Assembly: GCF_016903815.1 (NCBI RefSeq)
Contig: NZ_CP069973.1
Origin: Escherichia coli
GTDB taxonomy: Bacteria > Pseudomonadota > Gammaproteobacteria > Enterobacterales > Enterobacteriaceae
Direction: 5' to 3' (one strand)
Length of the DNA stretch: 64,000 nucleotides
Under the pieces are notes generated by a model, which saw only the letters and a list, made by a program, of their open reading frames with translations, did not search any database and had not been told where the DNA came from. Each line of letters starts with the position of its first letter. Position 1 is the stretch's first letter. This document shows, one piece after another, positions 59,544 through 63,372 of this stretch. A program made the position numbers and the translations under genes.

Positions 59544-60437
59544 ATGAATGGAAACTTGCAAAGTTCGGATGTAAAAAACGAAACTCCGTACAATATTCCC
59601 TTATTGATTAACGAAAATGTGATCTCCAGCGGAATTTCTCTGATCTCGCTCTGGCATACCTACGCCGACGAGCATTATCGGGTGATCTGGCCGCGGGACA
59701 AGAAGAAACCGCTTATCGCCAACTCATGGGTTGCGGTGTATACCGTACAAGGATGTGGGAAAATTCTTTTAAAGAATGGTGAACAAATAACTCTGCATGG
59801 CAACTGTATTATATTTTTAAAGCCAATGGATATTCACTCTTATCACTGTGAAGGTTTAGTCTGGGAACAGTACTGGATGGAATTTACCCCCACCAGTATG
59901 ATGGATATTCCCGTTGGTCAGCAAAGCGTTATTTATAATGGCGAAATTTATAATCAGGAACTCACCGAAGTTGCTGAGTTAATTACTTCACCAGAAGAAA
60001 TAAAAAATAATCTGGCAGTCGCTTTTCTGACGAAAATTATTTATCAGTGGATTTGTCTTATGTACGCAGACGGTAAAAAAGATCCACAACGGCGGCAAAT
60101 TGAAAAACTAATTGCCACTTTACATGCCAGTCTGCAACAACGCTGGAGCGTAGCTGATATGGCTGCCACGATCCCCTGTAGCGAAGCCTGGTTGCGTCGT
60201 CTGTTTTTACGCTATACCGGCAAGACGCCGAAAGAATATTACCTCGATGCACGTCTGGATCTGGCGCTATCGCTATTAAAGCAACAAGGGAACTCGGTTG
60301 GCGAAGTCGCTGATACGCTCAACTTCTTCGACTCCTTTCATTTCAGCAAAGCCTTTAAACATAAATTTGGTTATGCGCCGTCAGCCGTGCTAAAGAATAC
60401 GGACCAGCACCCAACGGATGCCAGTCCACACAATTAA
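59544..60437 (+). CDS. yidL: AraC-family transcriptional regulator
   Basis: C-terminal AraC-type HTH ([17 protein letters not shown]); start ambiguous (the track ORF begins at 59514). Confidence 0.8.
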
Positions 60438-61756
60438 CGTAACTCTGGCCAGTACGCTTTGTTGGCCTCCAGCAAATCATCCAGAATAGCTTTGGCGACC
60501 GAGGCGCTCGGTACCGTTTTCGACAACGTAATCGCCTGCCACAGGTGCTGATATGAACGCTGTTCCCAGGCGTCCACGACCAGTTTTTCCACCGCCACTT
60601 GCTGACTCATTAACCCTTTCTGAAACTGCGGGATATCGCCGACCACCAGTGGTTCTGGTCCGTTGTGCCCGACCAGACACGGGATCTCGACCATCGCTTC
60701 ATCATCAAAGTTATGGATTGCCCCGTTGTTAGGCACAATCAGCAACATCCGCTCCTGAGTGTTGAAGGCAATTGCCGCCGCCAGATCGACGATGTATGAC
60801 GCATGTTCGTCAATTTCCAGCTTGCCCGCCGCTGAATTTCCTGCCGCCGTAATGGCGCGGCAAGCATCGAAAACCTGTTTCTCGCGATGTTCCATCACCT
60901 CATTCGCGCGGGTATGTTCAGGGTTGGAATGCTGAACGACATAATCCGGGAAGAGATAATATTTCAGATAGGTATTCGGTAATGTATCCGGGTCCAGAGC
61001 CTGGACATCCCGCGCTTTTGCATAGGTGTCGTTCCAGCTCGCTTCAGTATGTGTATCTTGCTGCGGTGGAACATAACCGTGCTTAGAGACATATTGCCGC
61101 AGCTGGGGCATCAGGTCGTTGCCCTGCAAATCTTCAATTGATGTCCACCAGCCAAAGTGGTTCAGGCCGTAGTAGCGCACGCGCATATGTTTGCGATCTT
61201 GCAGCCCAACAATTTGCGCCATCCGGCTTTCAATACCGATTGGCATGTCACAGATGTTGAGGATTTTCGCATTCGGGCGCAGACGACGCGTGGCTTCTGC
61301 GACAATAGCTGCCGGGTTGGAGTAGTTGAGCATCCAGGCATTTGGTGAATATTTTTCCATATAATCCACCAGTTCCAGGACGCCGCCAATGGAACGCATG
61401 CCGTACGCTATTCCGCCGGGTCCGCAAGTTTCCTGACCAACAACGCCGTGGCGCAGCGGGATTTTTTCATCCAGTTCGCGCATCGGGTATTTGCCGACGC
61501 GGATGTGCGCCATGACAAAATCAACGTCGCTGAATGCCACTTCAGGATCGGTGGTGTAACTAAACGCAATGTCCGGCGCTTTTTCTTTTAGGATGACTTT
61601 ACAGGCTTCGGCAATCACTTCCTGCCGCGCGCCATCGTTATCATAAAATTTCAGTGCACGAAGCGGGAAACGGTCCTGATTCGCCAGGAGCATCAACACG
61701 ATGCCTGGCGTAAAGGTGCTTCCACCGCCTGCGACAACCACTGAGAATTTGGTCAT
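60434..61756 (-). CDS. glvG: 6-phospho-alpha-glucosidase, glycoside hydrolase family 4 (440 aa, intact)
   Basis: GH4 N-terminal NAD-binding motif ([13 protein letters not shown]) and catalytic region; single uninterrupted frame. Confidence 0.85.
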
Positions 61757-63372
61757 TATACTGCCTCCGTAATGGCAACATTTTCTGCTGATTGATGAGA
61801 ATTAATTAAGCTATCGAGCTGTTCACGCAGCTGGGATACATGCAGACCAATGATCACCTGAATGGCATCGCCACTACGGAAGACGCCGTGCGCTCCCAGC
61901 TTTTTAAAGACTTCGTCATCCAGCGTTTGTGACATGTCATGCAGTGCAATCCGTAGACGCGTCGCGCAATTGTTGATGCTGGAGATATTGCCGACCCCGC
62001 CCAGGGCTTGCAGGATACCGGCAGCCTGATCCAGCTCTTTTTTTGGCTCTGCAGCGGTGGTTTGGCCTCGCGAGGCTTTGTATTCGGCTTTTGAGTAGAG
62101 TTTCACTTCCGCATCTTCACGTCCCGGCGTGCACATGTTGAATTGCAGAATCAGGGTGCGGAAAACCACGAAGTACAGCAGGGTAAAGCACAACCCAATG
62201 GCGATTTGGGTCAGCATCATATCCGCGTGGTTGCTGAACATCGGGATCCAGTTTTGCGGTAAAACCTGGTCAATCAAACCACCGCCCATGTTGCCCACCA
62301 CACCAAAGAGATACATTACGGTCGACATTGAGGCCGCCAGCACGGCGTGTACTGCAAACAGCAACGGTGAAATGAACAGGAAGGTAAATTCCAGCGGTTC
62401 GGTAATTCCCACCAGCATGGCGGTTAAGGTTGCGGGAATCAGCAAGCCCGCCACTTTTACCCGATTTTCCGGTGCGGCAGTGAAGTACATCGCTAAAGAA
62501 ATGCCCACGGCACCAAAAATTTTTGAGTTACCGTGCAGGGCAAAACCGCCTTCCGGGAACAACGATTTCAGCGGCTCGGCGCTCAAACTGAACTCTTGCA
62601 GATGCTGCGCCCAGTACATCTGAATGCCGCCTTCAACAGCTGCCGGACCAAAGATAAACGGTCCGTAGATGAAGTGGTGTAAACCGGTTGGGATCAGAAT
62701 ACGTTCGAGGAAGGTGTAAACCCAGACCCCAAGCGCACCCGCCGAACGCAGGAACGCTTGCAGAGATTCAATTCCCATTTGTACTTTTGGCCAGCCGAGC
62801 AACGTCAGCCAGGCGCAGGGGATCATCACCAGGAAGGCGATAATCACCACATAAGATGTCCCCTGGAAAATGCCGAGAAACACCGGCAGTTTTTTATCGA
62901 ACAGACGGTTATGCAGCGCCGTCACAATGCCGGAAATGATAATTGCGCCGATAATGCTGGTATCGAGGGTTTTAATCCCGGCCATCATTGTCAGACCGCT
63001 ACCTGCCACCGCGTCCTGAGTGAAATCGACGCCGAAGTAGCTTCCCCAGGTCATTCCCATCGCGTTGATGAAATAGTTCCAGGTCAGGAAACTCACCATC
63101 ACCGCCAGACAAGCTCGCCCCTGCGCTTGCTTAGCAAGGCCAATGGGTAAACCGACAGCAAAAATCAGCGGCATATTACGGAATACCGTCCAACCGCCCT
63201 CTTCAATAATATGTACGATTTGCGCGAATAAACTGTTCGGATCGGTCAGTGATTCCCCGACAAACATCGGGTTTTGCAGCAAGATGGCAAGACCCACCAC
63301 AATCCCGGCGAAGGGAAACAGCAGCACTGGCGTGAACATCGCGCCGCCAAAGCGTTGAATTTGACTGAGCAT
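61756..63372 (-). CDS. glvC: PTS alpha-glucoside-specific EIICB (fused glvC-glvB, about 539 aa)
   Basis: Glucose-family IIC followed by IIB domain (CATRLR motif) in one frame; start placed at [13 protein letters not shown] (the track ORF extends to 63633). Confidence 0.8.

Follow-up and report, generated by a model that had tools for sequence, protein, structure and literature searches.

Does an Escherichia coli strain whose glv genes lack the lesions of K-12 still have a working pathway for the uptake and cleavage of alpha-glucosides? The question is raised by a 64,000-nucleotide stretch of E. coli contig NZ_CP069973.1 (RefSeq assembly GCF_016903815.1), hereafter the window, in which a gene for a transporter of the phosphotransferase system (PTS), glvCB, and a gene for a 6-phospho-alpha-glucosidase of glycoside hydrolase family 4 (GH4), glvG, each form an uninterrupted frame beside the divergent regulator gene yidP. 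We conclude that this region is, in all likelihood, an intact ancestral enterobacterial module, yidP / glvCB-glvG, that is orthologous to aglA-aglB of Klebsiella, works, and depends on Crr. The gene pair comprises the following features:

60434..61756, minus strand: intact glvG/aglB-type gene for a GH4 6-phospho-alpha-glucosidase (an open reading frame, or ORF, of 440 residues)
61756..63372, minus strand: glvCB/aglA-type gene for an alpha-glucoside PTS EIICB transporter, in one frame (538 residues)
61754..61768, minus strand: predicted translational-coupling junction of glvCB and glvG, read from the sequence as acGGAGGcagtaTAATGacc

Both are real genes, not chance ORFs. E. coli strain 7/2 is 100% identical to the window across the 3.5-kb region, and its RefSeq coding sequences for the same two genes are named '6-phospho-alpha-glucosidase' and 'PTS sugar transporter subunit IIB'. 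An earlier note on this DNA had described two uninterrupted frames of about 539 and 440 residues; the ORF list, the family matches described below and the annotation of strain 7/2 agree with it on the frames and on the 440 residues of GlvG, and the EIICB protein has 538 residues, not 539. The maximal ORF of glvCB spans 61756..63633 on the minus strand, and the start annotated in RefSeq is its Met88, at 63372, preceded by the Shine-Dalgarno sequence AAGAGGA (63386..63380). We rejected the 87-codon N-terminal extension (63373-63633) as non-coding: it lies over the conserved intergenic region, and both the RefSeq annotation and the alignments of orthologues begin at Met88. At the other end of the gene, the glvCB stop TAA (61758-61756) overlaps the glvG ATG (61756-61754) as TAATG, with a Shine-Dalgarno GGAGG (61768-61764) eight bases ahead of the glvG start, an arrangement of signals typical of translational coupling.

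GlvG matches both GH4 domains over its full length, Pfam Glyco_hydro_4 (PF02056) at 1.9e-66 across residues 6-184 and Glyco_hydro_4C (PF11975) at 6.5e-56 across residues 195-415. Its closest relatives are phospho-alpha-glucosidases, namely the K. pneumoniae 6-phospho-alpha-glucosidase (PDB 6DUX; E 1.7e-275, 917 bits), B. subtilis GlvA (PDB 1U8X; E 3.2e-225, 752 bits) and 6VC6, labelled a phospho-alpha-glucosidase (433 bits), and not beta-type enzymes, the phospho-beta-glucosidase 1S6Y scoring only 211 bits. The motifs GGGS at residue 10, Cys169-Asp170, His200 and Tyr263 are all present and align with GlvA residues, and Cys169, Asp170, His200 and Tyr263 are invariant in 78 orthologues. GGGS is the NAD+-binding glycine motif, and the GlvA counterparts of the other four residues are C171, D172, H202 and Y265, which comprise the Mn2+ ligands (Cys and His) and the catalytic Asp and Tyr.

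GlvCB scored 959.2 bits against TIGR02005, the model for alpha-glucoside-specific PTS IIBC proteins, which has a curated cut-off of 607.3, and the match covered profile positions 1-524 of 524. The protein contains PTS_EIIC (PF02378) and PTS_EIIB (PF00367) domains, and scans of it with NCBIfam and Pfam profiles found no EIIA domain. It has the motifs GLHH at 230, GITEP at 322 and CATRLR at 469; His232, His233, GITEP and Cys469 are invariant in 68 orthologues.

We aligned window positions 60300-63800 with K-12 MG1655 and found 32 substitutions and one gap, among which two differences account for the K-12 lesions:

60656..61163, minus strand: 508-bp glvG segment deleted in K-12, from the alignment and the junction sequence
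62266..62268, minus strand: glvCB codon 369, CAG (Gln) in the window and TAG in K-12, where it splits glvC from glvB

The 508-bp segment is bounded by an 8-bp direct repeat, AGTGGTTC, of which a single copy is left at the K-12 junction; this arrangement points to a deletion by slippage or illegitimate recombination. The loss shifts the frame, 508 not being divisible by three, and this explains the K-12 glvG pseudogene (b4556). K-12 glvC and glvB together occupy the same 1617-bp span as the single gene of the window, and the sole disruption is the change from CAG to TAG (window position 62268). K-12 GlvCB also carries P238Q, at a proline that is invariant in 68 orthologues. Apart from the frameshifting deletion, the Q369 stop and P238Q, K-12 glvC-glvB-glvG (b3683, b3682, b4556) resembles the window in locus, orientation, the neighbours yidL and yidP, and sequence (99% DNA identity). 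Thus, the earlier note had correctly stated that glvG is a pseudogene in K-12 and that the transporter is split into glvC and glvB; the K-12 genes are not as intact as those of the window, which has neither lesion. It had also allowed for inactivating substitutions at catalytic residues, and we found none: the window's genes keep all the catalytic and invariant residues. With the lesions absent and these residues kept, the earlier suggestion that an alpha-glucoside PTS pathway may still function in this strain is a fair one. The arbutin named there as a test substrate was the wrong choice, since arbutin is a beta-glucoside; the 'arbutin' label is a legacy of K-12 annotation.

In the pathway that we propose, GlvCB (EIIC-EIIB) would import trehalulose, turanose, maltulose, leucrose, palatinose, isomaltose, maltitol, maltose and methyl-alpha-glucoside, a substrate range predicted by analogy with Klebsiella AglA/AglB and B. 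subtilis GlvC/GlvA, and would phosphorylate the substrate at O-6 of its glucosyl unit. The phosphate would pass from phosphoenolpyruvate to EI, then to HPr, then to EIIA-Glc (Crr, whose gene crr lies elsewhere, outside the window) and finally to Cys469 in the EIIB domain. GlvG, as an NAD+/Mn2+-dependent GH4 enzyme, would then split the 6'-phospho-alpha-glucoside into glucose-6-phosphate and the aglycone. The two genes would be translationally coupled via the TAATG overlap. Their transcription probably starts at a weak promoter that needs cyclic AMP (cAMP)-CRP and answers to YidP, the divergent GntR/HutC regulator. We infer the dependence on Crr, the regulation by CRP and YidP, and expression itself.

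Klebsiella aglA/aglB or B. subtilis glvC/glvA let E. coli use isomaltose, panose and related sugars, with AglA and B. subtilis GlvC operating via the endogenous EIIA-Glc (crr) (PMC5309279), and maltitol uptake through AglA/AglB is cited in PMC12728616. K. pneumoniae AglA/AglB (PDB 6DUX, 6DVV) matches the E. coli system in gene order and in its two-protein design, which lacks an EIIA of its own, at identities of 81% for AglA and 90% for AglB (tblastn, ATCC 13883), and related genera have the same divergent GntR/UTRA regulator in the same chromosomal neighbourhood. Unlike the Klebsiella proteins, those of E. coli are known here from sequence, GlvG has His190, and the species is polymorphic for loss of the locus. 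B. subtilis GlvA (MalA, PDB 1U8X) is about 75% identical to GlvG over the full length and shares all active-site motifs. The Bacillus gene order differs, with the transporter downstream of glvA, and the regulator there is the RpiR-type GlvR rather than a GntR/HutC protein. The Bacillus-type EIICB (GlvC/MalP), to which GlvCB is about 61% identical, needs a foreign EIIA-Glc, as was shown in E. coli for GlvC (PMC5309279).

How widespread the intact state is was assessed in 5,426 complete E. coli genomes. The locus was present (at least 80% of the query covered) in 4,266 of them, the 508-bp glvG segment in 1,652, and the exact K-12 deletion junction, searched as a 30-mer, in 2,606. At codon 369 of glvCB, 3,839 genomes have the CAG allele and 348 the TAG allele, the latter being, among the matches listed, K-12 and other laboratory-derived strains. 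Set against the 1,652 genomes with full glvG, the 3,839 with CAG leave roughly 2,200 that keep an open 1617-bp glvCB frame despite a destroyed glvG. The intact state is common, being found in about 30% of the complete genomes, and is already annotated in RefSeq; for each of the window's two proteins, exact copies are found on at least 1,000 contigs in public databases, where GlvG is called '6-phospho-alpha-glucosidase / maltose-6'-phosphate glucosidase' and GlvCB 'PTS sugar transporter subunit IIB'. Both ORFs were intact in all six further glvG-positive genomes that we sampled (O157:H7, BL21, ST38, P276M, IMT16316 and XH993).

A further group of about 1,150 genomes matched only over the last ~105 bp of yidL. 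We examined one locus-negative genome, that of SCU-101, in which yidL lies directly next to yidE; glvG, glvCB and yidP are all missing, apart from a remnant of ~50-70 bp from the 3' end of yidP, and yidL, at 867 bp, is shortened. The yidP remnant and the shortened yidL indicate that the absence arose by deletion and, together with the same gene order in other Enterobacteriaceae, rule out absence as the ancestral state. At the SCU-101 junction (8106-8143 of the retrieved locus), ~40 bp match neither flank. Mobile elements affect the glv locus in single lineages: a degraded IS200/IS605 element (tnpA/tnpB) stands in place of yidL in strain P276M (1-1443 of the retrieved locus), and the locus match in NEB5-alpha includes an IS1A, between the IIB and EIIC annotations.

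The window alleles are under strong purifying selection. Within E. coli, glvCB alleles differ from that of the window by 14-27 synonymous and 0-3 non-synonymous changes, giving a ratio of non-synonymous to synonymous polymorphism (pN/pS) of 0 to 0.05, and the corresponding range for glvG is 0.05 to 0.09. Five of the seven intact-glvG genomes share one identical GlvCB protein, namely those of the window and strain 7/2, O157:H7, ST38, P276M and IMT16316, the last four carrying it as WP_000952127.1. Among the seven intact-glvG genomes the segregating codons of glvCB comprise 48 synonymous and 2 non-synonymous, as against 12 synonymous and 6 non-synonymous (P238Q, P243L and the K-12 stop among them) in five glvG-deleted genomes, a contrast that is significant (Fisher p = 0.0033) in samples that are small. 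The changes accumulating in the glvG-deleted genomes are P238Q, P243L, V25M, L28F and A213V. This contrast fits a transporter that would be constrained only while its glucosidase stays present.

Decay is also visible among genomes with intact frames. GlvG of the window retains Pro217 and Asp255, both invariant in 78 orthologues, and these columns are changed elsewhere, as P217H in O157:H7 and as D255A in BL21, P276M and XH993; in these four strains, an intact glvG frame may thus be no guarantee of an active enzyme. BL21-RIPL (6213-6850 of the retrieved locus) and XH993 (3569-3901) have a frameshifted yidP, and their GlvCB carries L320P, beside GITEP, and G357S, at a glycine invariant in 68 orthologues. 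In these two strains inactivation of the transporter may have come after loss of the regulator.

The module is old. Close relatives of GlvG (80-92% identity) were found across Enterobacterales, Aeromonas and a Vibrio in a scan of species-representative genomes, and tblastn searches with the neighbouring genes placed a divergent yidP and then glvCB-glvG in essentially all proteobacterial orthologous loci. The order ibpB-yidE-yidP-glvCB-glvG-yidL-yidK also occurs in Citrobacter braakii, Kluyvera and Pseudocitrobacter, and the locus is therefore ancestral at its present chromosomal site. The regulator gene stands at the edge of the window:

63668..64000, plus strand: 5' part of yidP, encoding a GntR + UTRA regulator of the HutC type, positioned from the strain 7/2 annotation and cut by the window end

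The full YidP protein matches Pfam GntR (PF00392; 6.8e-21) and UTRA (PF07702; 1.2e-30), and yidP is missing along with glvCB-glvG where the locus has been lost; it is part of the glv module. The yidL-yidK-yidJ cluster (an AraC regulator, a sodium symporter and a sulfatase) adjoins the module in some genera only, and we treated it as a separate unit. In the window the convergent yidL (plus strand, ending at 60437) and glvG (minus strand, ending at 60434) share 4 bp at their 3' ends, 60434..60437.

Whether these genes are likely to be expressed turns on the spacer between yidP and glvCB, which we compared with its orthologues:

63373..63667, no strand: divergent yidP-glvCB control region, 295 bp, from footprinting against 46 orthologous intergenic regions
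63522..63547, minus strand: inverted repeat GTCTAC-N14-GTAGAT, candidate operator for YidP (GntR/HutC), 175 bp upstream of the glvCB ATG
63487..63500, minus strand: CRP-like half-site pair ATGA-N6-TCAC, 128 bp upstream of the glvCB ATG
63445..63440, minus strand: -10-like hexamer TATCCT, ahead of the glvCB Shine-Dalgarno

Phylogenetic footprinting of the 47 regions (the window spacer and the 46 orthologous ones) revealed conserved blocks whose distance from the glvCB ATG is fixed. The family form of the inverted repeat is GTCTA-N16-TAGAC; a permissive pattern for it matched 38 of the 47 regions, and its spacing is fixed wherever the exact GTCTA/GTCCA form occurs. The GTCTA/TAGAC arms appear to resemble HutC-family half-sites. 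The ATGA-N6-TCAC pair occurs in 42 of the 47 regions at a conserved position, and its centre lies ~61.5 bp upstream of the transcription start inferred from TATCCT, as in class I CRP promoters. The inverted repeat, the CRP-like site and the Shine-Dalgarno are conserved in 38 to 42 of the 47 loci, and all are retained in the window. We read the control region as a probable CRP-dependent promoter under YidP control, with putative CRP and YidP sites. Footprinting was used instead of a search with the CRP consensus, which, with three mismatches allowed, gave 269 matches across the whole window against ~237 expected, not above chance. A second palindrome, AACACATCTTT-N5-AAAGATGTTTT at 63575-63601, was dropped as an operator candidate; it sits in a ~75-bp stretch that many genera lack. 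A consensus scan of the control region found no terminators, and no Rfam families were found in 59300-64000 at E up to 0.1.

Several observations weigh against a working pathway or in favour of a cryptic operon, with intact frames behind a promoter too weak or silenced, such that use of alpha-glucosides needs an activating mutation, as for the E. coli beta-glucoside operons bgl, asc and chb. A consensus scan of 63300-63720 found no sigma-70 promoter, so the operon could be silent, and G+C is lower upstream (0.478 in 63250-63749) than in the genes (about 0.52-0.53). The right arm of the candidate operator reads GTAGAT in place of the usual GTAGAC. The searchable literature holds no usable expression or growth data for E. 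coli with an intact glv operon and no report of a phenotype, and the K-12 homologues have been regarded as 'cryptic or nonfunctional', or truncated (PMC5309279). Repeated loss of the locus in E. coli (the 508-bp deletion in 2,606 genomes and the whole module in about 1,150) argues for a weak benefit. The shift in glvCB from 48:2 to 12:6 after loss of glvG is, however, hard to square with genes that are never expressed, and the control region shares its conserved blocks with such genera as Klebsiella, in which use of palatinose is near-universal (98.9% positive in a table of PMC3877295, the panel being Klebsiella by our own reading of that table). We therefore consider a cryptic operon unlikely.

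The remaining doubts concern the window's own lineage, where the frames could be intact and the pathway nonetheless impaired, at an early stage of K-12-like decay, by the GlvG change Q190H or by an unseen defect in yidP or the promoter. GlvG of the window has His190, found in none of the 78 orthologues, and Q190H, by which it differs from other E. coli alleles, is the only candidate change; yidP is only partly inside the window, and its integrity is deduced from the 100%-identical strain 7/2. Silent decay has also occurred elsewhere, as in the P217H and D255A alleles and in BL21 and XH993 with G357S and a frameshifted yidP. Column 190, however, is variable, with Gln in 20, Glu in 41 and Asp in 17 of the orthologues, the His190 allele is common, and all the invariant residues that we checked are kept in the window. 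Of the identical GlvCB alleles, the window's is the most widespread, and the window's exact GlvG recurs on the public contigs counted above. Impairment of this kind appears very improbable. GlvG also fell below the NCBIfam equivalog cut-offs (179 bits against 486 for NF011657 and 68 against 650 for NF041089); this result is not informative against GH4 membership, because the library gave no scoring equivalog model for 6-phospho-alpha-glucosidase.

If the module works, the polymorphism of intact, deleted and absent loci might itself be a selected metabolic difference, in which ~30% of strains, including O157:H7, ST38 and that of the window, would use sucrose isomers, isomaltose or maltitol by a Klebsiella-type pathway, and in which the transporter would decay fast after loss of the glucosidase, since importing a sugar that is not then hydrolysed brings no benefit or is toxic. 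We offer this broader reading tentatively, as a possibility that falls somewhat short of probable. If it is true, positivity of E. coli for palatinose or maltitol would serve as a simple marker, for niche or diagnosis. A working module would also correct the K-12-centred view of E. coli as lacking an alpha-glucoside PTS, and it predicts strain-dependent use of isomaltulose, maltitol and isomaltose, which are food sugars and sweeteners. The mapped lesions supply exact markers, in the deletion junction at the 8-bp repeat and the Q369 stop. These results also explain why the glv locus is dispensable in K-12; its name appears in several strain-engineering papers, where it probably serves as an integration site. 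The practical value is modest and no long-standing question is opened, the family being already well characterised biochemically and structurally.

Elsewhere in the window, a 3,454-residue ORF (25487..35851, minus strand) encodes a giant inverse autotransporter of the intimin/invasin type, with an IAT_beta domain and, after it, many Invasin_D3/Big_1 Ig-like repeats whose DNA has a periodicity of ~291 bp.

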